Below, piece after piece: positions 1-10,969 of a stretch of DNA of 10,969 bases. A model generated the notes under the pieces. That model was given only the letters and a program-made list of their open reading frames with translations, had not been told where the DNA came from and made no database searches. This DNA comes from Deinococcales bacterium (GTDB lineage: Bacteria > Deinococcota > Deinococci > Deinococcales > JAAFIG01), in NCBI GenBank assembly GCA_043778225.1, contig JAYWGM010000005.1, positions 1 to 10,969 on the forward strand, in the 5' to 3' direction. The stretch's first letter is position 1; each line of letters starts with the position of its first letter. The translations under genes were made by a program, and so were the position numbers.

Positions 1-155
1 CGCCGTAATGAGCGCGAGTAGCCCGTGAGGTGCTATTTTACGAGCAAGAACAGAATTGCCGCTTTTTGAAAATTCTAAAATGTAGGCGGGAGATACTTAA
101 ATGCTCACCGAGGTTTGAAGTTATTTAGGCAGTAATTGCGACACAAAACTCGAGC

Positions 156-185
156 GGGCATTGACGGGTAGTAAAGTCAATGCCC
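156..185. terminator. Perfect 10-bp inverted repeat, possible terminator of the oxidase-ZIP operon
   Basis: GGGCATTGAC (156-165), 10-nt loop, GTCAATGCCC (176-185). It lies about 33 nt downstream of the ZIP stop codon. The U-tract on the minus strand is not directly adjacent (GCTCGAGTTTTGTGT), so the terminator role is uncertain. Confidence 0.5.
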
Positions 186-218
186 CAAGAGCGATAAATA
201 AAAAATAAATCGGTTTCA

Positions 219-1397
219 TTATTTAACCATAAATGCGGTGAAGTACATGATGGCGACTCCTGTAAAAACCCCTGCGAGGTTTGTCCAATTGATCACAGGT
301 AACCCGAGTTTGGCAGTGTCTCGAGCCACCAAGCGCCCCACTTCCCAGATGACTTGTAAAATTGCGCCAATGCCAATGGCTAAGAAAACTGTAGCAAGAA
401 TCGGATTAAAGGCAAAGCCACCAACCCAAACGCCAATCACGGCTGGAAAACCCGCCAGTAGTGCCAGTTGAATCCAGTGCTTCCAACCCGGATTTTTACG
501 CACCACGGGCGCAGCAATCCCTACACCCTCGGTGATGTTATGCAGCGTAAAGCCCAAGACCAAAAAAGTGCCAAGCGCAGCTTCGCCAAGCGCAAAAGCT
601 GCGCCAATCGCCAATCCTTCACCAAGGTTGTGTAAGCCAATACCAAGTGCAATTCGATACGATAAGCCCAAGGTATCGGGTTCTTCGTTGCTCTTCTTTG
701 GTTTGTTGGTCAGTGCCAGTAAAATACCCAACGAAAGCGCGGCTATCAGTAATACCAGTGGTGTTCCTTGCCAGAAGGCTGGTAATTCAGCCGCAAACTC
801 GAGGGCATCTAAATATGTGCCTAATGCCAAGTAGCCCAATAACCCAATGGTTAGACTCAAGATAAAATTCATGGCGGCACGGCTTAAATTTCGCATCCAT
901 GGATACCAGAGCATCCCAAGCCCTACTGGAATCACCCCAACATAAAAGCCGATTAAAGCAAAGCGTAAAAATAAGCTCCAATCAAAGACTGGGCTTTGCA
1001 CAGCTACTGGAATTTCAGCCGCAAAAACCGTACCGAGGCTCGAGATAAGCTGGATGGCATGGGCTTCTTCGGCAACCCAAGGGTACGGCACAGTGTAGGT
1101 GGCGCGTCCTAAACGTGGAATCGTGGTGCTTGGCGCAGCACTAAATTGCCAGAACGCATCGTCTACCAAGACTTGTGGAATAGTAACGTTACCGGGTCCA
1201 TCGTTAATCACTTCAATTTTAATCAGGTCTGGAGCGGGCAAAGTAATTCGTTCGATTTTTAGGCTTTCGACAGGTGGTCCTGCCAGTTCGCGCAGACCGC
1301 CGCCAGTCACGACAATGTAGGCTAAGACCACACCAAGCAGCAGCAACGGCACAAGCGCCAGCAACCAGGTAAAATTTGATTTTGTCTCGAGTTTCAT
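219..1397 (-). CDS. ZIP (ZupT/GufA-like) family divalent metal transporter with an N-terminal membrane anchor and an extracytoplasmic domain
   Basis: Paired ZIP metal-site motifs GIGLHNLGEGLAIG and FTLHNITEGVGI, and about 8 hydrophobic helices in the C-terminal part. An N-terminal TM helix is followed by about 100 aa of soluble, beta-rich sequence. ATGA overlap (1394-1397) with the upstream oxidase. Confidence 0.9.
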   Translation of the reverse strand: MKLETKSNFTWLLALVPLLLLGVVLAYIVVTGGGLRELAGPPVESLKIERITLPAPDLIKIEVINDGPGNVTIPQVLVDDAFWQFSAAPSTTIPRLGRATYTVPYPWVAEEAHAIQLISSLGTVFAAEIPVAVQSPVFDWSLFLRFALIGFYVGVIPVGLGMLWYPWMRNLSRAAMNFILSLTIGLLGYLALGTYLDALEFAAELPAFWQGTPLVLLIAALSLGILLALTNKPKKSNEEPDTLGLSYRIALGIGLHNLGEGLAIGAAFALGEAALGTFLVLGFTLHNITEGVGIAAPVVRKNPGWKHWIQLALLAGFPAVIGVWVGGFAFNPILATVFLAIGIGAILQVIWEVGRLVARDTAKLGLPVINWTNLAGVFTGVAIMYFTAFMVK

Positions 1398-2554
1398 TCG
1401 TCCACCCGATTCTTGCTGGGGTTGTACTCGACCGTGCTACCCTCGAGTCCAGCTTTATCCCAAGCACTGTCCATACCAACAGTTTTGACCGCCGCCGCAA
1501 AATCCTCTGGTTTAACCACATTAAAATGCCCCATCCAGCCGAGTTCAGTAAATTCCGAAACGTGCGGGTGAAACATATATTGCCCCGGAAACTTATATTT
1601 GAACTCGAGAATACCGCGTTGCCCCTGCATTTGACTGATGGTGTCCACTCGTCTGAGTGTTGGAGTCAGGGTTGTGCCGTGGTCGTAATAATCAAACATA
1701 TTGGCGTGCAAATGAAAGCCATTAATCAAATCAAACTCGAGGACATTGATTAAATAAATCCGTACCAGTTCGCCAAGTTTGATTGGAATCGGGCGGTTGG
1801 CAAATTCAAAACCGACAGTATTGACCGCATATACTTCGTTGCCATTATCAAAATTGGTATCGAAAGCATTCATGACCATCATCAATTCTCGAGCCGGTGG
1901 TCTGCCACCGATTGGGTCAACAATAAAAGCACCATACATTCCTTTGTGAATATGGCGTTTTAAGGGAACTGAATGGCAATGGTACAAATGACAACCATAC
2001 GGCTCGGCAGTAAATTCGTAAGTAAAGGTCTCGCCGGGTTTAACAAGTGGCTGATTTAAGGGTGTGCCGTCCATTTCGGCTGGATGAATCCCATGAAAAT
2101 GAATCGTGTGCGGATGCGAACCTTCGTTCTTAAAGACAATTTTTAGCCTATCGCCTTCGGTACAACGAATGCTTGGACCGGGTACGCGCCCGTTGTATGT
2201 CCAAGCTGGGAACATAATGCCCGGTGCAATTTCGATTTCTTTGTCTATGGCTATAAATTCGTATTCACGTAAGGTCTGACCGTTCTTTTTAGAGACTTGT
2301 CCATAGTCCCAATCCACCAGCATTCGCATTGGGTCAAAGCCATTGGTGACAGGATTAACGCTCCCCATTGCCATATTCGCACCATGACCAGCGTGATTAG
2401 CACTCGTCATGGCAGCGTGATTCATGCCACTCATAGCAGCTTGGGCTTGGACAGGTTCGGCTTGCGTGCCAAGCAGCGCGGCTGCACCTGTAGCCGCCGC
2501 CAACCCAGTGGCATTGCGGAGAACCGAACGTCTCGAGAATAATTTATTTAACAT
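1394..2554 (-). CDS. Tat-exported two-domain multicopper oxidase (type 1 Cu site in domain 1 only)
   Basis: Twin-arginine signal FSRRSVL...VQA. Cu motifs are HPHTIHFHG, YHCHSVPLKRHIHKGM, FHLHAN and MFHPH. Start moved to the ATG at 2554, which follows the RBS AAGAAAGGA-N7, giving 386 aa. Confidence 0.9.
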   Translation of the reverse strand: MLNKLFSRRSVLRNATGLAAATGAAALLGTQAEPVQAQAAMSGMNHAAMTSANHAGHGANMAMGSVNPVTNGFDPMRMLVDWDYGQVSKKNGQTLREYEFIAIDKEIEIAPGIMFPAWTYNGRVPGPSIRCTEGDRLKIVFKNEGSHPHTIHFHGIHPAEMDGTPLNQPLVKPGETFTYEFTAEPYGCHLYHCHSVPLKRHIHKGMYGAFIVDPIGGRPPARELMMVMNAFDTNFDNGNEVYAVNTVGFEFANRPIPIKLGELVRIYLINVLEFDLINGFHLHANMFDYYDHGTTLTPTLRRVDTISQMQGQRGILEFKYKFPGQYMFHPHVSEFTELGWMGHFNVVKPEDFAAAVKTVGMDSAWDKAGLEGSTVEYNPSKNRVDE

Positions 2555-2612
2555 TGTAAAGTCCTTTCTTTTAATCAAGCCGCAGTTAAGATTCGATAAG
2601 CCTTAAAATAAG

Positions 2613-2628
2613 TTTAGTATACACTAAA
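2613..2628. promoter_or_regulatory. DtxR/MntR-type operator upstream of the oxidase-ZIP operon
   Basis: TTTAGTATACACTAAA is a near-perfect palindrome, 15/16 identical to the box at 5337-5352. It overlaps the predicted -10 box. Confidence 0.85.
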
Positions 2629-2649
2629 TTTTAATCAAAAATTTGCCGA
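2621..2649 (-). promoter_or_regulatory. Sigma70-type promoter of the oxidase-ZIP operon
   Basis: -35 TCGGCA (2649-2644), 17-nt spacer, -10 TAGTGT (2626-2621). The geometry is identical to the ABC operon promoter. Confidence 0.55.
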
Positions 2650-2702
2650 GCCAACAGAACCAAATCTCAACTTCTAAAGAACTTGCTCGAGTAAAAATCC
2701 AA

Positions 2703-3599
2703 TCAGTCGTTGGCGAGCGCTGGGGTGGTTTCAAGCCTGTCCTCGAGTTGCTGCCGTTGGCGCTCGCGGTTCTTGGCAATCATGCCGTGCTTAGGTGCAA
2801 AAATAAACGCCAGAATAAATAAAATCCCTTGCAGCACCACAATACAGCCGCCTGTTGCGCCATCTATAAAATAACTGGCATACGTGCCGAACACACACGA
2901 AAAGACACTCGAGCCAACTGCCAGCCACATCATGCGGTCAAACTTATCGGACAGTAAATAAGCGGTTGCACCGGGCGTGACCAGCATGGCGACCACCAGA
3001 ATAATTCCAACCGCTTGCAGCGCTGTGACAATCGTTAGTGCCAGTACAGTTAAAAGTGCATAGTATAAAAAACCCGTGTTTAAGCCAATACTTCTGGCAT
3101 GGGTCGGGTCAAAACAAAACAGCAATAAATCCTTACGCAACACAAAAACGGTTGTTAGTGTAATACCACCAATAATCATGGTTTGCAGCACATCGCCGTC
3201 GGAAATGCCCAAAATATCGCCAAATAAAATATGAGATAAATGCACACTCGAGGAGACTCGAGACATCAAGACCAGACCAAGCGCAAAAAGCGTTGTAAAG
3301 ACCACGCCAATCACCGTATCTTCTTTAATTCGAGTGCGTGATTTAATAAAACCAATCGCCACCACCGAGCCAAGCCCAAAGGCAAACGCACCAATCGCAA
3401 ATGGCAAATTCAGCACATATGCCAGCACCACACCGGGCAGTACACTGTGCGAAACCGCATCGCCCATCAGCGACCAACCTTTAAGAATCACAAAGCACGA
3501 TAGAACCGCGCAGACAATGCCAATAAAAGCACTGACCAAGGTAGCTTTGACCATAAATTCGTATTGAAATGGCGCGGTTAGGGTCGTAATAATATCCAT
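2703..3599 (-). CDS. mntB: Mn/Fe (cluster A-I) ABC transporter permease
   Basis: ABC-3 family motifs SLMGDAVSHSVLPG, RIKEDTVIG, FDPTHARSIG and AVGIILVVAMLVTPGATA. RBS GAGGA. Confidence 0.92.
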   Translation of the reverse strand: MDIITTLTAPFQYEFMVKATLVSAFIGIVCAVLSCFVILKGWSLMGDAVSHSVLPGVVLAYVLNLPFAIGAFAFGLGSVVAIGFIKSRTRIKEDTVIGVVFTTLFALGLVLMSRVSSSVHLSHILFGDILGISDGDVLQTMIIGGITLTTVFVLRKDLLLFCFDPTHARSIGLNTGFLYYALLTVLALTIVTALQAVGIILVVAMLVTPGATAYLLSDKFDRMMWLAVGSSVFSCVFGTYASYFIDGATGGCIVVLQGILFILAFIFAPKHGMIAKNRERQRQQLEDRLETTPALAND

Positions 3600-3608
3600 G
3601 GTTTATCC

Positions 3609-4391
3609 TCAATTCTTGGGGTGACTCGGAGCGCCACCAAAAACGCGCATTAAATTCTCGGGCGTAAAAACAGTTTTGGTATCGCCGTACTCGAGGACAG
3701 TGCGGTTGGCAATTAAAGCCACCGTATCGCAAAAACTGCTGACGCTATCGAGGTCGTGGGTTGAAATCAGCATTGTATGCCCAAGGTCGCGCAGTTCGGA
3801 CAGCAACTTAATAATCGTCGTTTCGGTACTGGCATCCACGCCACCAAAAGGCTCGTCGAGCAGCATAATTTTACCTTCTTGGGCAAGCGCTCGAGCTAAA
3901 AAAGCCCGTTTGCGTTGACCGCCGCTGAGTTCGCCAATCTGACGGTGCTTAAAAGTAAGCATTCCAACCCGTTCCAAACTGGTTTTGGCAATCTCGAGGT
4001 CGCGGGCAGTGGTTTGGCGCAACCAGTTCATATGCCCGTAGCGCCCTTGCAGCACCACATCCCAGACCGAAACCGGAAAAAACCAATCCACTTCCTCAGA
4101 TTGCGGTACATACGCCACCAGACCCTTTTTCTGGGCTTGCTGCGAAGTGATCCCTTCGACGGCGACCGTACCTTGAAGCGGCGTTAAAAAACCCATGATT
4201 GTTTTGAACAAGGTACTTTTACCAGAACCATTTAAGCCAATTAAGCCACAAATGCTGCCGCTCTCGAGTTTGAGACTGGCATTACGCAGTGCCAGTTTGC
4301 CTTCGGCGTAGGCAACGCTGACATGATTAACCTCGAGCGAAATGCTTTTGGCAGGGTTTGGCGTGGTCTGGAGTTGGGATTGTTGGGTCAT
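3609..4391 (-). CDS. mntA: Mn/Fe ABC transporter ATP-binding subunit
   Basis: Walker A GLNGSGKST, Q-loop AYVPQ, signature LSGGQ, Walker B MLLDEP, H-loop STHD. ATGA overlap with the upstream binding-protein gene. Confidence 0.93.
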   Translation of the reverse strand: MTQQSQLQTTPNPAKSISLEVNHVSVAYAEGKLALRNASLKLESGSICGLIGLNGSGKSTLFKTIMGFLTPLQGTVAVEGITSQQAQKKGLVAYVPQSEEVDWFFPVSVWDVVLQGRYGHMNWLRQTTARDLEIAKTSLERVGMLTFKHRQIGELSGGQRKRAFLARALAQEGKIMLLDEPFGGVDASTETTIIKLLSELRDLGHTMLISTHDLDSVSSFCDTVALIANRTVLEYGDTKTVFTPENLMRVFGGAPSHPKN

Positions 4392-5278
4392 TGTCCGCTC
4401 AGTCCGGCTGTGACAGTCTCAGCGAATTTCTCGAGCAACTTTAAGTAGGTTGGGGCTTCGGGCGAGAGTGAATCGACGTATAAAATACCACCAAATTTTG
4501 CACCCGATTCCTTAGCGACTTGTTTCATGCCATCTGGCTCGACCGTGCTTTCGCAAAAAACGGCTGGAATTTTATTTTTACGCACCACATCAATCACTTT
4601 TTGAATCTGACGCGGTGTGCCTTGTTCGCCAGCATTGACCGCCCAAAGGTAATACTCTTGCAAGCCATAATCCCGTGCTGCATAGCTAAAAGCCCCTTCG
4701 CAACTCACCAAGGCTCGAGCATTAGCAGGCAACTTAGCCAGTTTGGTTTTGAGGCTTTGGTCGACTGCCACAATCTGAGCGCTGTACTTTTTGGCATTGC
4801 TGTTAAAGGTAGCGGCATGAATGGGGTTGAGTTTAACAAATGCCTTACGGATATTTTCAACGTAAATCAAACCGTTCTTAGGCGACATCCATGCGTGAGG
4901 GTTGGGTTTACCGGTGTACTGGGCTTCGGCAATGTTGATGGTAACAATGTTATCGGTCAGGATAACTCGAGGCACTTTTTTGAGTTGCCCAAAGAATTTT
5001 TCTGCCCAGCGTTCTAGGTTTAGCCCGTTGTAGAGCACCAAATCGGCTTGTTGGGCGCGAACAATATCCGACGGTGTGGGAATATAGCCATGGATTTCTG
5101 CCCCCGGCTTGGTGATGCTATTGACCACCAGTTTATCGCCAGCCACATTGCGTGCCATGTCTTGAAGGATCGTAAAAGTCGTGGCAACAATTTTTGGCTT
5201 GGCTTGAGCGCTGGTTTGGACGCTAAGAAGTAGGGCAGCTAGAGCAAGGCTCAAGGTTAGCGCAATTATTTTTTTCAT
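4388..5278 (-). CDS. mntC: Mn/Fe ABC transporter periplasmic binding protein (TroA/SitA/MntC family)
   Basis: His/His/Glu/Asp ligand set in EIHGY, NPHAWM, CEGAF and YVDSL. The Sec signal ends AQA with no lipobox. The ATG at 5278 follows the RBS AAGGGG. Confidence 0.93.
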   Translation of the reverse strand: MKKIIALTLSLALAALLLSVQTSAQAKPKIVATTFTILQDMARNVAGDKLVVNSITKPGAEIHGYIPTPSDIVRAQQADLVLYNGLNLERWAEKFFGQLKKVPRVILTDNIVTINIAEAQYTGKPNPHAWMSPKNGLIYVENIRKAFVKLNPIHAATFNSNAKKYSAQIVAVDQSLKTKLAKLPANARALVSCEGAFSYAARDYGLQEYYLWAVNAGEQGTPRQIQKVIDVVRKNKIPAVFCESTVEPDGMKQVAKESGAKFGGILYVDSLSPEAPTYLKLLEKFAETVTAGLSGQ

Positions 5279-5315
5279 CAAGTCCCCTTAGGATTTTATA
5301 AGCGAAAGCATTTGA

Positions 5316-5331
5316 GTTAGGAAGCCCTAAA
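5316..5331. promoter_or_regulatory. Second, degenerate DtxR/MntR-type box
   Basis: GTTAG-GAAGCC-CTAAA fits TTTAG-N6-CTAAA with one mismatch and lies 21 bp from the perfect box. Confidence 0.6.
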
Positions 5332-5336
5332 TCAGA

Positions 5337-5352
5337 TTTAGTGTACACTAAA
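5337..5352. promoter_or_regulatory. DtxR/MntR-type operator upstream of the ABC operon
   Basis: Perfect 16-bp palindrome TTTAGTGTACACTAAA overlapping the -10 box, adjacent to a DtxR-family gene. Confidence 0.88.
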
Positions 5353-5373
5353 CTTTAAGCCAAGAATTGTCAA
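5345..5373 (-). promoter_or_regulatory. Sigma70-type promoter of mntCAB
   Basis: Consensus -35 TTGACA (5373-5368), 17-nt spacer, -10 TAGTGT (5350-5345). Confidence 0.8.
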
Positions 5374-5389
5374 GCCCCACCGGCAACAA

Positions 5390-6055
5390 TTAGTCCGTCA
5401 ATGCCTCAACCCAGATTTGCCGCGCCACCTCGAGACCAATCGTGATTCTGCCTGTTGCCAGCAAAATATCTACCACACCAGATAATAAATGCAGATCGCA
5501 CATCTCGAGCTTTGCACCCGGAATGATGCCCAGACCAGACAGGTGCTTGAGTAGCATCGGGTCATGCCCAGCCACCCGCCCAACCCGTACCACCTCGCCA
5601 GCCAGCACATCGGCAAGCGGACGGGTTGCTTTAGTAGGCAATGCCCCAGTTAAACTTGGAATTGGGTCGCCGTGTGGGTCATGGGTCGGTTCGCCCAGCA
5701 CTGCAAACATTCGTGCCTCGAGTTCTTCGCTGATATGATGCTCTAAACGGTCAGCTTCGGCGTGCAATGATTCAAGCGGAATACCCAATGCCTGATGCAA
5801 ATAGGTTTCTAGAAGTCGGTGATGGCGCACAATCTCGAGCGCGATTTGTTGACCAGAGGCGGTTAAAGTTGCGCCTTGATAGGGCAAATAATCAATCAAT
5901 TTGAGTTCGGCTAGGCGTTTGAGCATAGCCGTGACTGATGCTCCCGAAATACCAAGCACCCCAGCAATCTCGAGGGTATTGGCTCGAGATTGCTGACTGA
6001 GACTATAAATTGCTTTGAGGCAATCTTCGGTTTGTGGGGTTAGGCGTTCACGCAT
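5390..6055 (-). CDS. mntR: DtxR/MntR-family metal-dependent repressor with C-terminal FeoA/SH3-like domain
   Basis: wHTH segment SVTAMLKRLA, then RHHRLLETYL, EADRLEHHIS, HDPHGDPIP and the FeoA-like LGIIPGAKL. Adjacent to a Mn/Fe ABC operon. Confidence 0.9.
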   Translation of the reverse strand: MRERLTPQTEDCLKAIYSLSQQSRANTLEIAGVLGISGASVTAMLKRLAELKLIDYLPYQGATLTASGQQIALEIVRHHRLLETYLHQALGIPLESLHAEADRLEHHISEELEARMFAVLGEPTHDPHGDPIPSLTGALPTKATRPLADVLAGEVVRVGRVAGHDPMLLKHLSGLGIIPGAKLEMCDLHLLSGVVDILLATGRITIGLEVARQIWVEALTD

Positions 6056-6061
6056 GGTGGC

Positions 6062-6067
6062 AGTCTA
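6062..6067 (-). promoter_or_regulatory. -10 box of a probable leaderless mntR transcript
   Basis: TAGACT-GCCACC-ATG, with no Shine-Dalgarno sequence. Confidence 0.6.
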
Positions 6068-6097
6068 TCCGAATTTAAAGGATGAAAGACAGCCTAA

Positions 6098-6610
6098 CTA
6101 CACAATTTCGTTATCGGTTACAAACTCAATCCGTTGAGCGGGCAGCAGTGCCAAACGCTTAAAAGCAGGATTCTCGAGAACCGCTTGAACGAATTCTTCT
6201 AGGGTTTCGTAGTCGGTGCTGTCTTCGTAAGTGCTTTCAAATCCCGAGAAATCCAGATGATCGTACTCGAGTTCAAGTAAAATCGATTCAAATTGTTCTT
6301 CGCGCTCATTTTCGATTTCGGTTTCATCGTTGCTAACCGAATCCAAAGCCCGCTCTAGCGCTACAATAATCGCTATTGGTTCGCCCGGTTTGGTCATACC
6401 AAATAAACCCATTAAACCTGTCGCACGTTCGGGGTCACTGCGTTCAACATCAACACTAAACATCAGGTCATCTGCCAGCGCCCAATCGTATTTTTGGTCA
6501 CGATGATACTCGAGCAGTGCCTTAAACGCCGCGCCAAGGGTGGTTTTTTCGAGCGGTTCGGTTAAATGTCCAAGGAATGCTAAGCGCATTACGGTTTCTA
6601 CATCGTTCAT
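6098..6610 (-). CDS. Highly acidic hypothetical protein
   Basis: Fills the gap between bshB1 and mntR. The ATG at 6610 gives an ATGA overlap with the bshB1 stop (alternative start 6619). About 40 D/E versus about 13 K/R. No family recognised. Confidence 0.8.
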   Translation of the reverse strand: MNDVETVMRLAFLGHLTEPLEKTTLGAAFKALLEYHRDQKYDWALADDLMFSVDVERSDPERATGLMGLFGMTKPGEPIAIIVALERALDSVSNDETEIENEREEQFESILLELEYDHLDFSGFESTYEDSTDYETLEEFVQAVLENPAFKRLALLPAQRIEFVTDNEIV

Positions 6611-7305
6611 GGTGTCCATAATAGCGCTATTTGGGACTCAAAGGCTTCGGCATAACGCACCCCAAGAAAAGTCCCCCAATACATCAGCCGAGCTTTGCGC
6701 CGCTCGAGGATTTCTGGATTGACCGTTTCAGAAACCGCCACCCCAGTAAATTGGCTTTGGTGCGCCATAATTGCCTTCTCCCATGGCTCGAGAACACTGG
6801 TTATATCCACCAGTACATTGGCTTGTATTGGGGCGTTGCCTTGGTAATACAGCACTCGGCTCACTTTATGGGTTGCACCCTCGAGACTGGCTTTTTGCAA
6901 GCCAGCCAAATGCACCGCCGAAGCACTCAAGAGCGCCGCACCAATGTGGTCTGGATGGCGGTCTGCTTGGTGTGGCACAAGTAAAGTCTGAGGACGTAAG
7001 TCTCGAATAACCTGAGCCAGTTTTAGACGGTACTCGAGGAGGTCTTGAATTGAACCATCGGGCAAACCCAGATTACCGCGAAATGCCAAACCCAGAATTT
7101 TGGCAGCCTCGAGTGCTTCGGCATCACGAATTTTGGGCGTACCAAGTGTTCCCATTTCGCCACGGGTGAGCTCGAGAATCCCAGTTTTTTTATTGTTTTG
7201 GGTAGCTTTTAAGAGCGTTCCACCACAGCCAATTTCGGCATCGTCGGGGTGTGGGGCAATGGCTAAAATATCCAGTGGCTCGAGGTTGCCAAAAATTATT
7301 TTCAT
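6607..7305 (-). CDS. bshB1: Bacillithiol biosynthesis deacetylase (PIG-L/LmbE family)
   Basis: APHPDDAEIGCGGTL, LTRGEMGT, RHPDH and YAEAF motifs. ATGA overlap with plsY. Confidence 0.88.
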   Translation of the reverse strand: MKIIFGNLEPLDILAIAPHPDDAEIGCGGTLLKATQNNKKTGILELTRGEMGTLGTPKIRDAEALEAAKILGLAFRGNLGLPDGSIQDLLEYRLKLAQVIRDLRPQTLLVPHQADRHPDHIGAALLSASAVHLAGLQKASLEGATHKVSRVLYYQGNAPIQANVLVDITSVLEPWEKAIMAHQSQFTGVAVSETVNPEILERRKARLMYWGTFLGVRYAEAFESQIALLWTP

Positions 7306-7943
7306 ACTTTGGTTTCTTCAGTAGGTTGTTTAACCGTGTCGTTTAGACTTGCTGATTTTTGATTAAATTGGCGTTCGTTACCATCGGCTAAGCGCTTTAA
7401 GTTATCGCGGTGTTGCCAGAGTATCAGCATAAAAATCAGGGTTAGCATCACAATTTTCCACCATTCACGCTGCATTGTTATAGCAAAAATAATTCCACTA
7501 AACGAAGCGATCATACTTGCAGCACTCGAGAAGCGTGTAATCGCAACCGTAGCCACAAAAATCGGCAGAATAGCCAAGCCCAATAAAGGATCAATCAAAG
7601 TCATTGTTCCATAACTGGTAGCGACCCCCTTACCACCTTTGAAGCCCAAAAAAATACTGTAATTATGTCCAATAATCGCAAAGAAACCAACCACAGCCAG
7701 TTCCCAACCTGGCATCCCGAGAGCTTGGGCAATCAGCATCGGAAAACCACCTTTGAAAATATCAGCTAAAGCAGTTACTGCCGCCGCGCCCCAACCAACC
7801 GAACGTAAAACATTGGCAGTGCCGATATTGCCACTGCCAACTTTTTGAATATCCACGCGATAAGTACGGGCAACCAGCACCCCAAAAGGAATCGCACCGA
7901 AAAGGTAAGCCACAACAGCAACCCATAAAATGTTGGCATTCAC
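7302..7943 (-). CDS. plsY: Glycerol-3-phosphate acyltransferase (acyl-phosphate dependent)
   Basis: YLFGAIPFG, GSGNIGTANVLR, DIFKG, GHNYSIFLGFKGGKGVAT and HRDNLKRL motifs. GTG start. Confidence 0.96.
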   Translation of the reverse strand: MNANILWVAVVAYLFGAIPFGVLVARTYRVDIQKVGSGNIGTANVLRSVGWGAAAVTALADIFKGGFPMLIAQALGMPGWELAVVGFFAIIGHNYSIFLGFKGGKGVATSYGTMTLIDPLLGLAILPIFVATVAITRFSSAASMIASFSGIIFAITMQREWWKIVMLTLIFMLILWQHRDNLKRLADGNERQFNQKSASLNDTVKQPTEETKV

Positions 7944-7949
7944 ATTTTT

Positions 7950-7955
7950 ATTCTA
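7950..7955 (-). promoter_or_regulatory. -10 box of a probable leaderless plsY transcript
   Basis: TAGAAT-AAAAAT-GTG. Confidence 0.6.
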
Positions 7956-7991
7956 CGCCTAAGCTGTGAATGTGGTGTGACTCGAGCCACC

Positions 7992-8150
7992 TCATTTGCG
8001 GGCGTTGCGACATTTATCCGAGCAGTAAATCACATTATCCCAGTTGTTGCGCCATGCTTTGCGCCACGCAAATGGCTTGTTGCAAACTGGACAAATTTTA
8101 CTTGGGCGCTCGGATGGTTTTTTGCCACCACCAAAATCTTTATTCGCCAT
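7992..8150 (-). CDS. 52-aa DUF2256-like Cys-rich small protein (absent from the ORF track)
   Basis: Manual translation: [52 protein letters not shown]. It has the pattern CxxC..PFxWRKxW...W..V.YCS..CR and overlaps the upstream gene by 11 nt. Confidence 0.88.
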
Positions 8151-8568
8151 GCAGCACTTCCTGTTCAACTTTGCGCCAGAAACCCGAAAAACGTTTAACT
8201 TGCCCTGTAAAACTGGTCAGACGCTCAGGAGGATAAACAATCACGCCCAAACCCGCCGCCTCGAGTAAATCTAGGGTTTTATTAAGTTCTGGGCTAGGAA
8301 TTTCGGTGGTGTGAATTTGGGTACAATTGTGCAATTTAGCAAAGGCAATAATTTCTTGGGCTTGAATCCCGACACAGATTCTGGTCTTGGCTCGAGTTGC
8401 AAAGGCTTCGAGAACACCTTCAAACATAAATTGCAACCTTGGAAAAGCAATTTCGGTATTCTCGAGAAAAGGCTTATCAAACACAAATATCGCAGGTGAG
8501 TCTGGATTATCGGCGAGGGCAGGGTCGGTGCTGGACAAACTGCCACCGTGCAACCAAACCAGCTTCAC
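8140..8568 (-). CDS. Stand-alone photolyase N-terminal (alpha/beta) domain-like protein
   Basis: LVWLH...L...DPAL, AIFVFD and RLQFMFEGV follow the order of the photolyase N-terminal motifs (VWFRxDLR.xDNPAL, xFIFD, RxxFLxESL). GTGA overlap with the upstream FAD-domain gene. Confidence 0.7.
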
Positions 8569-9350
8569 GATGACCAGCCAAATTGCCCACCAAAAAGTTC
8601 AGACTCGAGCGTTTCATAAGATTTATTGAACGGACACTTGACGCGGCAAGTCTTGCACCATTGGTGACTCGAGAATTTGGCAATGTTTTCTTTGTTCATA
8701 AAATACGGCTTGTGCGAGAAGGTACTGGACACCCACTGCCAAGAAAGCGCGTTGCTGGCAATATCACCATCGAGCAAGTGCTGCCTAAAAAATGCGTAGC
8801 CAGCTTTCCAATGGACTTTCCTAAAATGCACCGTGTATGCCGCAAACCAAAGGCGTTCGTGGTTGTGCAAGTAGCCAGTCTCGAGTAAGGTCTCGACCCA
8901 CGCATCGACACAAGGCAGTCCAGTCTGAGCCTCGAGTATATCTGCTGGCATTTGCTCTGCCCAACGGGCTGTGTACTTGGGCTGCTCCAGATTCTCGAGA
9001 ACCGCCGTGCCTTCTTGCTCGAGAACCAAAGAAAAAAATTCGCGCCAAGTGAGTTGCTTTAAGAATTCATCGCGTTCGCGCCCTTGCACATTGGCTCGGA
9101 CATGAGCCGCAACTTCGACAATACTCAGCATTCCATGGCGCAAATATGCCGATAACCTCGAGACTGGCGCATCGGTGTGGTTGCGTCGTCCGTAGTTTTT
9201 GGCTTTGAAGTTCTCGAGTTGCGCCAAAGCAGCACTGCGCCCACCATGCAAGGCGGGCGCGTGGGCTTGACCAGTGTACAGACCTTGCAGTGCTGTCTCG
9301 AGGTACTGGGTTATTGCTTCGCGGCTCGAGAAATCTTGTTTGAGTTCCAT
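8565..9350 (-). CDS. Short photolyase/cryptochrome-family protein, FAD-binding helical domain only
   Basis: GGRSAA..L..F, SRLSAYLRHGMLS, QLTWREFF, TGLPCVDA, TGYLHNHERLWFA and LLDGDIASNALSWQW motifs. At 261 aa it lacks the N-terminal domain. Confidence 0.9.
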   Translation of the reverse strand: MELKQDFSSREAITQYLETALQGLYTGQAHAPALHGGRSAALAQLENFKAKNYGRRNHTDAPVSRLSAYLRHGMLSIVEVAAHVRANVQGRERDEFLKQLTWREFFSLVLEQEGTAVLENLEQPKYTARWAEQMPADILEAQTGLPCVDAWVETLLETGYLHNHERLWFAAYTVHFRKVHWKAGYAFFRQHLLDGDIASNALSWQWVSSTFSHKPYFMNKENIAKFSSHQWCKTCRVKCPFNKSYETLESELFGGQFGWSS

Positions 9351-9356
9351 TGGCTC

Positions 9357-9362
9357 ATTATG
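9357..9362 (-). promoter_or_regulatory. -10 box of a probable leaderless photolyase-operon transcript
   Basis: CATAAT-GAGCCA-ATG. Confidence 0.5.
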
Positions 9363-9396
9363 GCGTTTGGCTCACGCATGGCGCTTGGTTACGGGC

Positions 9397-9402
9397 TACA
9401 CT
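9397..9402 (+). promoter_or_regulatory. -10 box of a probable leaderless transcript for the beta-barrel gene
   Basis: TACACT-TATTGCC-ATG. Confidence 0.6.
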
Positions 9403-9409
9403 TATTGCC

Positions 9410-10339
9410 ATGAAACGCTTTTTGCTGATTCTTGTCTTTGCCATGTTTTCATTTGCCAAAGCCCAAACGCTCGAGTTTTCGATTGCTTATCCGCTCACGG
9501 CTCAGGTGGCAATTTCTGGAGTGGCTGTTTCCGAAGCGCTTTCGTTTGGTTTAGCCGCTTCGCTCGAGCGGCTGCGCTTGTCTGCCAACGCTGGCTTAGA
9601 AATTGCGCCAATTGGTTCGCTGCAAGCCAATGCCAGCCTTGAATGGGCTTTTGTGGGGCGGTTTCGTATCACGCTGGCAACTCGAGCCACCCTCGGTTCG
9701 GCAACCTTAAATTTAGGCTTGGCGCTCTGGAGTGCTGCCCCAGCTAATTTTGACCCGTTCGAGATTTATACCGCCGACCCACTGCCCAATTCGACCGGCG
9801 GCTCCCGCTTTGAGGTGGGCTTGGGTTTACGAATCTCGAGAAGTTTATCGCTTTTTACCAAGCTCTACTTGGGTTCGGATGCCTCGAGTAACAGCTTACA
9901 ATTGCGTTATCGCAGCAATGATTTTGATTTGTACGGCGGATTTTTTGCGGCGACTGGGGCAAATGGCGAGATTTATTTGTTGCAATCTGGCTTGACTTTG
10001 CCTTTCGAGGATGCGGCTTTGGTTTTTTCGGTTGGGGCGGGTGTGGGACTGCTGAACAACAATCTGACTTACGAAGCCAATTTGGGTGTTTTGTTTGGCA
10101 TCTCAGAAAATATCGCGCTCGAGTTGAGTCTGGTCTATCAGCCGTGGCGTTTTGAGGTGCTGCCGTTGCGTTCGAGTCTCGAGCTTAGCCTTTCGCCCGG
10201 TTTTGGGACGCTGCGGCTGACTGGTTTTGTTGGGGTCAATCAACAAAACATTTTTAACTGGGGACTGCGCCTCTCCTACCGTCTGGCACTCGAGGAACTC
10301 TTTCCAGCCCCATCCTCATCTGGTTTCAGATTGCCGTGA
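9410..10339 (+). CDS. Secreted protein, probable outer-membrane beta-barrel
   Basis: Start moved to the ATG at 9410, giving the signal peptide MKRFLLILVFAMFSFAKA|Q. There are many alternating Gly/aromatic amphipathic strands (RFEVGLGLRI, YEANLGVLF, WGLRLSYRL). Confidence 0.7.
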   Translation: MKRFLLILVFAMFSFAKAQTLEFSIAYPLTAQVAISGVAVSEALSFGLAASLERLRLSANAGLEIAPIGSLQANASLEWAFVGRFRITLATRATLGSATLNLGLALWSAAPANFDPFEIYTADPLPNSTGGSRFEVGLGLRISRSLSLFTKLYLGSDASSNSLQLRYRSNDFDLYGGFFAATGANGEIYLLQSGLTLPFEDAALVFSVGAGVGLLNNNLTYEANLGVLFGISENIALELSLVYQPWRFEVLPLRSSLELSLSPGFGTLRLTGFVGVNQQNIFNWGLRLSYRLALEELFPAPSSSGFRLP

Positions 10340-10353
10340 TACGTTTTCTATAG

Positions 10354-10872
10354 ATGAGTAACCTTTACCACCTTCCCGCCGGTCCAAACGTTCCCGAAAT
10401 CATCAATGTCGTGATTGAAGTGCCGCGAGGCAGCGCCAACAAGTACGAATACGATAAAAACCTCGGGGTGATTAAACTCGACCGTGTGTTGTACGCCGCG
10501 ATGCAGTACCCCGGCGATTATGGTTTTATCCCCAGTACCCTTGGTGGCGACGGCGACCCATTGGACGCGCTGATTTTATCCACCCATCCATTTTTACCAG
10601 GTGTGTTGATTGAATGCCGTGTGCTGGGGATGCTCGAGATGTCCGACGACAAGGGGCGCGACGAAAAAATCCTGACTGTGCCAGCCGACGACCCACGCTG
10701 GGATGACCTACAGAATCTCGAGGATGTGCGTAAACACCGTCTGGCAGAAATCGAACATTTTTTCCTCGAGTATAAGTCCTTAGAAGGTAAAACCGTGACT
10801 TCTGAAGGTTGGCGCTCTAAAGCCGAAGCCATGACCTGTATTCTCGAGGCAGTTGAACGCGGCAAGCATTAA
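10354..10872 (+). CDS. ppa: Family I soluble inorganic pyrophosphatase
   Basis: EVPRGSANKYEYDK, LDRVL, YPGDYGFIP, DGDPLD, DEKI and HFFLEYKSLE motifs. Confidence 0.97.
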   Translation: MSNLYHLPAGPNVPEIINVVIEVPRGSANKYEYDKNLGVIKLDRVLYAAMQYPGDYGFIPSTLGGDGDPLDALILSTHPFLPGVLIECRVLGMLEMSDDKGRDEKILTVPADDPRWDDLQNLEDVRKHRLAEIEHFFLEYKSLEGKTVTSEGWRSKAEAMTCILEAVERGKH

Positions 10873-10969
10873 GTGCATTGTCGGACAAGTCGGTAGACTT
10901 GGCGAGCTATGCGAGTACCGATAGGTGCAGCGTCGGAGAGTCTGTAGTTTCAAGGAACGAAGAATCGAA

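Follow-up and report, generated by a model that had tools for sequence, protein, structure and literature searches.

CTCGAG is a highly iterated palindrome across a family of Deinococcota

Introduction

The six-base word CTCGAG is a highly iterated palindrome (HIP) common to a whole family of Deinococcota. It came to notice in a stretch of 10,969 nucleotides from a Deinococcales bacterium (contig JAYWGM010000005.1 of assembly GCA_043778225.1; hereafter the window, meaning the whole of that stretch), in which 66 exact copies lie dispersed from position 149 to 10848. The counts, shuffles and alignments reported here show that a force acting at the level of DNA, and throughout the family, favours the exact hexamer, all but saturating the synonymous options of coding sequences and driving amino-acid changes. 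An earlier note on this DNA, made from the letters alone, had likened the word to HIP1 (GCGATCGC), which with its alternate HIPs is known from cyanobacteria (Elhai 2015, PMC4390886).

The nature of the force can be read in several ways. Our favoured reading, to which we give a probability of roughly 0.35, draws on analogy and takes CTCGAG to be a mark of kin DNA in natural transformation and/or homologous recombination. Fragments or alleles richer in CTCGAG would be preferentially taken up or recombined, and molecular drive and/or selection would then build up the word, in line with the uptake-sequence or Chi-like role now proposed for HIP1 in the recent literature.

The window is contig C5 of G000, an assembly of 4,029,277 bases in 107 contigs (GC content 48.7%, 89.4% complete). 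The family set holds 19 genomes of five genera (GC 47-60%); 18 are fragmented metagenome-assembled genomes (MAGs), and the remaining one, G013, is a closed genome of a different genus from G000 with a GC content of 60%. Completeness of the family MAGs ranges from 57 to 94%, and plasmids may be unbinned. A scan of the phylum covered 201 genomes, for which f and g numbers label families and genera. Open reading frames (ORFs) of G000 are simple calls, 3,500 in number and spanning 88.9% of its DNA, and the synonymous shuffle permutes codons inside each ORF, so that protein sequence and codon usage are kept. In relatives, shuffle ratios and dipeptide ratios come from 100-kb samples, the dipeptide ratios with rough ORF calls.

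Abundance of CTCGAG and Control for Composition

In the window, direct counting agrees with the earlier estimate of 66 copies, one per ~165 bp, where 2-3 were expected: the zero-order expectation is 2.5, and 200 dinucleotide-preserving shuffles gave a mean of 1.26 copies and a maximum of 5. All remaining NTCGAN hexamers sum to 31, close to the roughly 30 that the note had counted by eye and said were outnumbered by CTCGAG. Inside 13 ORFs lie 63 of the 66 copies. The other three, which the note had placed in intergenic DNA at 149, 2686 and 7981, are indeed outside every ORF of at least 100 amino acids. By codon phase, 44 copies encode Leu-Glu, 9 encode x-Arg(CGA)-x and 10 encode x-Ser(TCG)-Ser/Arg, and the examples offered for the three phases (320, 798, 1039 and 2532) hold true on the minus strand, on which their genes lie. 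A synonymous shuffle of each window gene gave 8.1 +/- 2.5 copies (maximum 16 in 500 runs), compared with the 63 observed.

The abundance extends well beyond the window. G000 contains 24,877 copies (6.17/kb), making CTCGAG its commonest hexamer; the next non-overlapping hexamer is about fivefold rarer, and the runner-up among palindromic hexamers numbers 2,854. Densities on the 107 contigs all fall between 4.0 and 10.6/kb. The excess is 27-fold over the zero-order expectation and 74-fold over a first-order model of the motif-masked genome, above the genome-wide excess of at least 15-fold that characterizes HIPs. The nearest named records, Deinococcales MAGs, fit the description in the earlier note of a HIP1-like palindrome in a non-cyanobacterial genome. 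Coding and non-coding DNA carry the word at the same density (6.17 and 6.15/kb), and spacers between tandem, divergent and convergent genes hold 6.15, 6.34 and 6.69/kb, respectively. Placement relative to genes was rejected as an organizing rule, since the profile across gene starts and stops is flat at ~6/kb. Like other HIPs, the word is found in ORFs in all phases (13,056, 4,468 and 4,632 copies genome-wide) as well as between them.

It is hardly credible that CTCGAG merely reflects codon, dipeptide or base composition or is an artefact of assembly. Composition might be suspected from the smaller excess in high-GC relatives, which is largely phase-0 CTC-GAG, and from a maximal-order Markov ratio of merely 1.16; that ratio is uninformative, because the overlapping 5-mers CTCGA and TCGAG already hold the signal. 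However, the ORFs of G000 contain 22,156 copies where the synonymous shuffle gives 2,383 +/- 54, a 9.3-fold excess, and phases 1 and 2 each stand ~12-fold above the shuffle. Together with the equal density between genes, the shuffles of window and genome rule out a codon or dipeptide explanation, the control on which the note had made its claim depend. An artefact is contradicted by the abundance of the word in 19 assemblies and in four independently deposited named MAGs. The DNA-level process that the note proposed is thus upheld by equal coding and non-coding densities, a flat gene profile, use of all phases and the excess over the shuffle.

Consequences for Proteins

In G000, Leu-Glu is the top over-represented dipeptide, with 18,870 copies and an observed/expected ratio of 2.33 (Glu-Leu, 0.97). 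CTCGAG spells 69% of these pairs, where codon usage predicts 7%; the word takes in about half of the CTC and GAG codons of the genome and about a third of its TCG and CGA codons. The Leu-Glu ratio is 2.09 in G013 and 1.56, 1.09 and 1.10 in three outgroup genomes.

The inorganic pyrophosphatase encoded in the window shows the effect within one protein. Its five Leu-Glu pairs compare with an average of 1.26 in 76 homologues from other phyla, and at the columns of its four CTCGAG sites Leu-Glu occurs in only 0-2 of the 76. Members of the family vary at these columns (LV, LT, LA, ME, AE, ID). The sites align to other residues rather than to gaps, and 6-bp insertions adding Leu-Glu were rejected as their source: only the C-terminal site is gap-aligned, in 18 of the 76 homologues. 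CTCGAG arises through ordinary substitution rather than insertion, wherever a position in coding or non-coding DNA tolerates it, and it spreads by replacing amino acids as well. The word alters about one per cent of dipeptides, a clear instance of a DNA-level force overriding protein-level preferences.

Turnover of Sites and Regions Where the Word Is Scarce

The window was aligned in 11 pairings with same-genus genomes of 70-85% DNA identity, which are related and hence not independent. By a crude count, in ten of the pairings 55-82% of CTCGAG sites are shared at the aligned position, and in the eleventh 32% (7/22); other hexamers in the same pairings are shared at 16-41%. Among 193 site-by-relative comparisons, 116 sites are shared, 59 differ with an amino-acid change, 17 differ synonymously only and 1 is gapped. 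The earlier note had suggested looking in orthologues for gains at synonymous positions; apparent gains are there (CTTGAA to CTCGAG). In a six-genome alignment used to follow gain and loss, 33 columns have CTCGAG in at least one genome, two of them in all six and ten in a single genome. One singleton column reads CTTGAA in four genomes and CTCGAG in one, and another reads CTCAAA in three and CTCGAG in G000. Columns of this kind, with the other genomes in agreement, are several, and they look like lineage-specific gains.

The word is scarce in some regions. The rRNA genes of G000 are unassembled (three primer motifs gave no match), and rRNA counts were therefore taken from G013, whose two 16S genes hold no copy in 1,505 nt and whose two 23S genes hold one in 2,933 nt; the 3-kb flanks of these genes hold 14-22 copies. 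In the comparison with rRNA operons proposed in the earlier note, CTCGAG is thus nearly absent from rRNA. Only 6 of 68 tRNA genes in G000 bear the word (1.1/kb). Each gene of one tRNA cluster (Ser, Cys, Glu, Met; G000:C19:9937-12769) does carry it, and this array may be of different origin. G000 has 19 CTCGAG-free gaps of at least 1.5 kb, mostly with a GC content of 31-40%. From its scarcity in the strongly constrained rRNA genes and most tRNA genes, and in low-GC islands, it follows that the word builds up wherever it is tolerated and has not yet done so in recent imports. In these genomes CTCGAG flags imported DNA.

Form and Spacing of the Word

Bases flanking CTCGAG (-6 to +6) are near background, with mild preferences only, as the note had judged by eye, and the 8-bp palindromic extension is avoided (offset-1 pairing 0.192, expected 0.258). 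The unit thus measures exactly 6 bp and stands outside hairpins. A position within a longer hairpin or terminator stem was rejected, as flank pairing is no more than chance and falls below it at offset 1; membership of a repeat family was rejected because the contexts are unique. One-mismatch variants show the outer-position bias of HIPs. Measured against the first-order model of the motif-masked genome, summed observed/expected ratios are 2.17 for positions 1/6, 0.99 for 2/5 and 1.28 for 3/4. Single variants at positions 1/6 lie at about 2.1-2.25 times expectation (TTCGAG 2.11), the transition variants CCCGAG and CTTGAG at 1.9 and 1.73 times, and the remainder at or below 1. CTCGAG exceeds each of its one-mismatch neighbours 18- to 170-fold, equivalent to a scaled advantage of about e^3-e^5. 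Asymmetry or strand orientation of the kind seen for Chi was not found; no orientation is possible for CTCGAG, because the word is its own reverse complement.

Gaps between copies in G000 are near geometric (mean 161, coefficient of variation 1.0). Close pairs are mildly deficient (0.33x for 6-12 bp between copies, 0.67x for 12-24 bp), as are gaps of 300-800 bp, and the index of dispersion is 0.88, 1.0 and 1.48 in windows of 500 bp, 1 kb and 5 kb, respectively. Regular spacing was rejected, since placement is near-Poisson apart from the mild close-pair deficit. Because of this near-Poisson placement, the force on the exact 6-mer presumably acts per site, independently of other sites. Pairs exactly 7 bp apart (CTCGAGNCTCGAG) number 123 in G000, whereas gaps of 8-11 bp yield 30-53. 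The N of CTCGAGNCTCGAG is uniform, and the flanks of the 123 pairs are nearly all unique.

A role in chromosome structure has been proposed for HIP1, for which a periodicity of 10-90 kb was reported (Xu, Lawrence and Durand 2018, PMC5861425). By the same reasoning an abundant nucleoid or chromosome-structuring protein could bind CTCGAG, with selection acting on the local density of the word, although we consider this unlikely. A 6-bp palindrome would suit a dimeric DNA-binding protein, and the uniform ~6/kb regardless of coding status, the deficit of very close pairs and that of 300-800 bp gaps would all be consistent with one. However, placement is near-Poisson (dispersion 0.88-1.0) with no visible spacing rule, and no candidate protein was identified.

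Distribution in the Phylum

All 19 family genomes, in all five genera, carry CTCGAG at 4.3-7/kb, and the reversed word GAGCTC numbers 0-568 copies per genome. The named records closest to the window pyrophosphatase, four contigs entitled 'MAG: Deinococcales bacterium' (71-92% identity), hold CTCGAG at 4.7-6.7/kb and no GAGCTC, at GC contents of 47-59%; in 76 loci of other phyla the median is 0.78/kb and the highest value 2.19. The word is thus shared across its lineage, as HIPs are, in 19/19 genomes and four named MAG loci, and the possibility raised in the note that the enrichment might be confined to the window can be dismissed.

The comparison with related genomes that the note called for also revealed a gradation outside the family. 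Densities are about 0.7-1.6/kb in g9, 1.4-3.5/kb in g13, g22 and g24, 2-2.6/kb in several f2 genera and 3.6/kb in an f3 genome (G236). The ratio of observed copies to the synonymous shuffle, which is 9.3x for the whole of G000, is 4.9x in G013, 3.6x in G236, 3.25x in G147, 2.8x in G042, 2.5x in G200, 1.8x in G021 and 1.5x in G051. CTCGAG is the top palindromic hexamer in G236, G147, G042 and G200, mostly in phase 0, and this excess outside the family may in part be a codon-pair effect. Among the enriched lineages outside the family are complete genomes, possibly of cultured strains. At the other extreme, genus g7, taken to be Deinococcus, has purged the word: its 83 genomes (1.9-6.1 Mb) all hold just 26-1,010 copies each, and a sample of one of them (G044) stands at 0.15x the synonymous shuffle. 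A search for the XhoI-family nuclease in the family of g7 matched 0/53 genomes.

Four viral contigs of IMG/VR (L284, L269, L291 and L341; GC 63-69%) were among the matches listed, with CTCGAG at 3.1-3.9/kb and 0-2 copies of GAGCTC. The word occurs in all codon phases in all four and also in non-coding DNA in L284, L269 and L291. These contigs, which have no protein match to G000, may be phages or prophages of word-carrying hosts.

Many other palindromes are rare in G000: GGCC has 131 copies, GATC 2,061, GGGCCC, GACGTC and AGGCCT one each and GGCGCC three, and 20 of the 64 palindromic hexamers have at most 24 copies in 4 Mb. In G013, GATC is normal and GGCC only mildly short. The avoidance is therefore a separate matter from the family-wide abundance of CTCGAG, and has the look of past restriction pressure at the level of the genus. 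It bears on a further explanation, that CTCGAG is a self mark related to defence, with dense and perhaps modified sites distinguishing a cell's own DNA from incoming DNA, which would have ~25x fewer sites. Imported low-GC islands do lack the word, the extreme avoidance of most other 6-bp palindromes in the genus speaks of heavy restriction pressure, and the purge in g7 indicates that CTCGAG is 'seen' by something in the phylum. We nevertheless hold a self mark to be quite improbable, as the avoidance of other palindromes is genus-specific and the abundance of CTCGAG is family-wide, and models for the XhoI, TaqI and BsoBI nucleases matched none of the 19 family genomes (with a silent control for BsoBI). 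We know of no defence system that operates by site density.

Methylases and Nucleases

The earlier note had connected the word with DNA methyltransferases and with the target of XhoI/PaeR7I. Within the searches made here this connection was not borne out. G000 encodes five full C5 methylases, several beta-class enzymes, several that are gamma-class or fused, and D12-class enzymes; most of these genes carry CTCGAG at native density, and their specificities are not predictable from sequence here. No orthologue group spanning the five genera was found in PF00145, PF01555, PF07669, PF02384 or PF02086, other methylase families not being searched; for PF07669, PF01555 and PF00145, G000 was compared with one good genome per genus. 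In G013, PF01555 is without a match and the one C5 enzyme is at most 36% identical to the others; G010 lacks C5 enzymes. Of the 19 family genomes, 18 encode D12 enzymes, but in unrelated groups. The group common to members of g1, g3 and g5 adjoins a probable nuclease and is absent from G000, and the type found in G013 and G001 is missing there.

Several single candidates were rejected as the cognate enzyme. The 1,072-amino-acid enzyme of G000:C1, a methylase that bears a Type ISP specificity domain, is patchy, occurring in 8 of 18 family genomes, and is found in outgroups too. A low-GC two-gene islet (G000:C92:60270-63806), adjoining the end of a peptidase gene, encodes a 338-residue ORF that matches nothing in Pfam or PDB and, after it, a 501-residue gamma-class adenine methylase (NPPY motif). 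The methylase has remote similarity only, to M.TaqI and BrxX, and no orthologue in five representative family genomes.

The XhoI nuclease model (PF04555) matched none of the 19 family genomes; the same model matches 6/201 genomes of the order. Pairs of an XhoI-family nuclease and a beta-class methylase occur in relatives of families f4 and f2. The methylase adjoining the nuclease in G021 has orthologues of 62-79% identity in f4, f5 and one f2 genome (G027), and in g9 the partner methylase is present without the nuclease in 23 of 28 genomes. This enzyme is probably specific for CTCGAG, judging from its neighbouring nuclease and a REBASE prediction quoted in PMC7526240, where MamA/MSMEG_3214 of M. 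smegmatis is described as a predicted XhoI-type pair. As a natural CTCGAG-methylase it was rejected for the family, in which it has no orthologue; the family matches are generic C-terminal ones of 33-47% identity, mostly over ~70 residues. The g9 genomes with the orphan methylase hold CTCGAG at only about 0.8-1/kb. TaqI nuclease (RE_TaqI) was likewise found in none of the 19 family genomes, with a positive control, as was BsoBI nuclease (Endonuc-BsobI), for which the control was silent. Vsr was not found in G000 (control positive).

A nearly CTCGAG-free, low-GC segment of G000 (G000:C101:10360-11570) encodes a D12 adenine methylase convergent with a 130-residue PD-(D/E)XK nuclease. The two are probably a small restriction-modification pair, which may be related to the shortage of GATC in the genus.

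Forces That May Maintain the Word

For the reading of CTCGAG as a mark of kin DNA, ComEC (PF03772), present in 18 of 19 family genomes, supplies a necessary, though not a specific, condition. A number of points weigh against it. ComEC is widespread and presumably also present in the genus that avoids CTCGAG, and the reading is a guess by analogy, with no direct tie of the word to uptake or recombination. Known uptake sequences are 9-12 bp long, recur roughly once in each kb and carry extended flanks; CTCGAG, at 6 bp and ~6/kb and without flank consensus, lacks both the length of at least 9 bp and the flank consensus by which they are recognized. The effect of HIP1 depends on a conserved orphan methylase, and no enzyme of that kind was found among the family methylases searched.

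The conservation of sites adds further points against it. The 11 alignments are of related, non-independent genomes, and the excess they reveal is purely synonymous. The amino-acid pair is equally conserved for CTCGAG Leu-Glu (93/135) and for other codon pairs (6,582/9,559; both 0.689); given a conserved pair, the hexamer is identical in 81/93 cases for CTCGAG, compared with 2,467/6,582 for other pairs. For Leu-Glu spelled otherwise, it is identical in 6 of 23 conserved pairs. Because most Leu-Glu pairs are spelled CTCGAG in both genomes, parallel codon choice could give much of the synonymous excess, and because that excess is purely synonymous, selection and continual re-creation are indistinguishable. 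Conservation of HIP1 sites has been taken as evidence of selection (Xu et al. 2018, PMC5861425). That argument is not established for CTCGAG, and purifying selection on single sites is not claimed here.

Continual re-creation, which the phase-matched control fits as well as it does conservation, is central to Elhai's model of HIP1, in which biased repair is linked to methylation. Applied to this family, a methyltransferase of CTCGAG or TCGA would mark the sites, and mismatch repair, or repair resembling the very-short-patch kind, would steer near-cognates to the cognate word; copies would keep arising or being renewed, and no single site would be under selection. This account is possible but doubtful. 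The one-mismatch excess is mainly at outer positions, as it is in HIP1 (Elhai 2015, PMC4390886), G000 is rich in methylases, and lineage-specific gains of CTCGAG are frequent. However, the methylase families searched, beyond which a methylase of an unknown family is possible, hold no orthologue common to the five genera; the widespread D12 enzymes belong to unrelated groups, and Vsr was not found in G000. Moreover, no one-mismatch neighbour is depleted as a repair substrate should be (CTTGAG and TTCGAG are in excess), and genomes with an orphan XhoI-type methylase are not rich in the word.

Genes of the Window

Ten of the 13 ORFs of the window have a Pfam match; they include proteins of metal transport and regulation, PlsY, a PIG-L deacetylase, a photolyase-domain protein and pyrophosphatase (Table 1). 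The homologues that come nearest to the pyrophosphatase outside the family (50-57% identity) belong to Actinomycetota, Acidobacteriota and other phyla, not to named Deinococcus or Thermus, which may reflect an old transfer or a limit of the pattern-based search. The ends of the window (1-105 and 10872-10969) are copies of short dispersed repeats, both without CTCGAG. The left one has 24 matches on 21 contigs of G000, nine of them at contig ends, and the right one has eight matches in G000, every one at a contig end. Both recur in same-genus genomes at 82-100% identity and probably broke the assembly.

Table 1. CTCGAG copies and ORFs of the window, with the number of CTCGAG in each ORF.
Feature	Position	Strand	Remarks
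Dispersed array of 66 CTCGAG	149..10848	.	mean spacing ~165 bp; neither tandem nor within a longer repeat
CTCGAG, intergenic	149..154	.	outside ORFs of at least 100 amino acids
ZIP-like transporter ORF	219..1397	-	weak Pfam match below cut-off; 4 CTCGAG
Multicopper oxidase ORF	1394..2578	-	Pfam; 5 CTCGAG
CTCGAG, intergenic	2686..2691	.	separates multicopper-oxidase gene and ABC-3 permease gene
ABC-3 family metal permease	2703..3599	-	Pfam; 4 CTCGAG
ABC transporter ATPase	3609..4391	-	Pfam; 5 CTCGAG
ZnuA-type metal-binding protein	4388..5281	-	Pfam; 3 CTCGAG
DtxR/MntR-type metal repressor	5390..6055	-	Pfam; 6 CTCGAG
173-amino-acid ORF	6098..6619	-	no Pfam match; 3 CTCGAG
PIG-L family deacetylase	6607..7305	-	Pfam; 7 CTCGAG (10/kb)
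PlsY acyltransferase	7302..7943	-	Pfam; 1 CTCGAG (1.6/kb, window minimum)
CTCGAG, intergenic	7981..7986	.	upstream of plsY
142-amino-acid ORF	8140..8568	-	no Pfam match; 3 CTCGAG
ORF with photolyase FAD-binding domain	8565..9350	-	Pfam; 10 CTCGAG (12.7/kb, window maximum)
329-amino-acid ORF	9350..10339	+	no Pfam match; 8 CTCGAG
Inorganic pyrophosphatase	10354..10872	+	Pfam; 4 CTCGAG, all encoding Leu-Glu

Implications

To our knowledge, HIP1 has gone unexplained for three decades and all known HIPs come from one phylum, which makes their cause hard to separate from shared ancestry. Deinococcota are known for natural transformation and extreme DNA repair. Within this phylum CTCGAG ranges from ~6/kb in the family through 2-3.6/kb in several lineages to a 10- to 100-fold purge in g7. 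We suggest, tentatively and against the odds as we judge them, that CTCGAG is a second, independently evolved HIP, denser than HIP1 and lacking a conserved cognate methyltransferase, which has gone to opposite extremes within the phylum. No paper on CTCGAG as an iterated palindrome, or on its over-representation, in Deinococcota, Thermus or Meiothermus was found in a search that did not extend to subscription journals, and the terms CTCGAG, Deinococ- and Thermus are all absent from Elhai 2015 (PMC4390886).

If this suggestion is true, CTCGAG would be read by some conserved cell machinery of the phylum instead of by a mobile restriction system, and HIPs would be a general device by which transformable bacteria recognize or recombine kin DNA. 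An independent case would also allow a comparative test, for machinery common to cyanobacteria and this family that is missing or altered in the purging sister genus. XhoI is predicted to cut DNA of the family into ~160-bp pieces unless the sites are modified.

Comparison With Known Systems

XhoI-type restriction-modification systems share the same 6-bp word. Restriction targets are normally avoided rather than enriched, in contrast to CTCGAG in this family, whose genomes were not found to encode the cognate nuclease and methylase; relatives with the pair or the orphan methylase hold 0.7-2/kb. Methylase-linked repair can inflate a cognate word, as in E. coli, where very-short-patch repair (Dcm, Vsr) gives an excess of CCWGG that is small and accompanied by depletion of the repair substrates. 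CTCGAG differs in its undepleted one-mismatch neighbours, as G000 does in the failure to find Vsr there.

The DNA uptake sequences (DUS) of Neisseriaceae and uptake signal sequences (USS) of Pasteurellaceae are non-palindromic words of 9-12 bp that occur at ~1/kb with an extended flank consensus. CTCGAG resembles them as a lineage-specific word spread over core DNA, shaping peptides and lacking in foreign DNA; such words can accumulate by uptake bias and recombination, and ComEC is encoded in nearly all of the family genomes. CTCGAG is unlike them in being a palindrome of 6 bp, at 6/kb, without flank consensus.

The closest likeness is to HIP1. Both are short, GC-rich palindromes, over-represented tens-fold, located in genes (in all phases) and between them, and shared across a lineage, with sites at matching positions in relatives more often than other words, an excess that for CTCGAG lies at synonymous positions only. 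Both have one-mismatch variants biased to the outer positions, both are scarce in rRNA and imported DNA, and the function of both is unsettled. HIP1 enhances natural transformation in a way that depends on methylation (Kamoku and Nielsen, bioRxiv 10.1101/2024.09.10.611283), and its abundance correlates with competence and type IV machinery, which has led to the proposal of an uptake-sequence role (Rodriguez-Cruz et al. 2026, PMC13756078). Genomes bearing HIPs have a conserved cognate orphan methyltransferase (Elhai 2015, PMC4390886), whereas for CTCGAG none was found in the five Pfam families searched. CTCGAG differs further from HIP1 in that it belongs to another phylum, is another word, of 6 bp rather than 8, and is denser (~1 per 160 bp); it makes Leu-Glu the top over-represented dipeptide, and it is purged by a sister genus.

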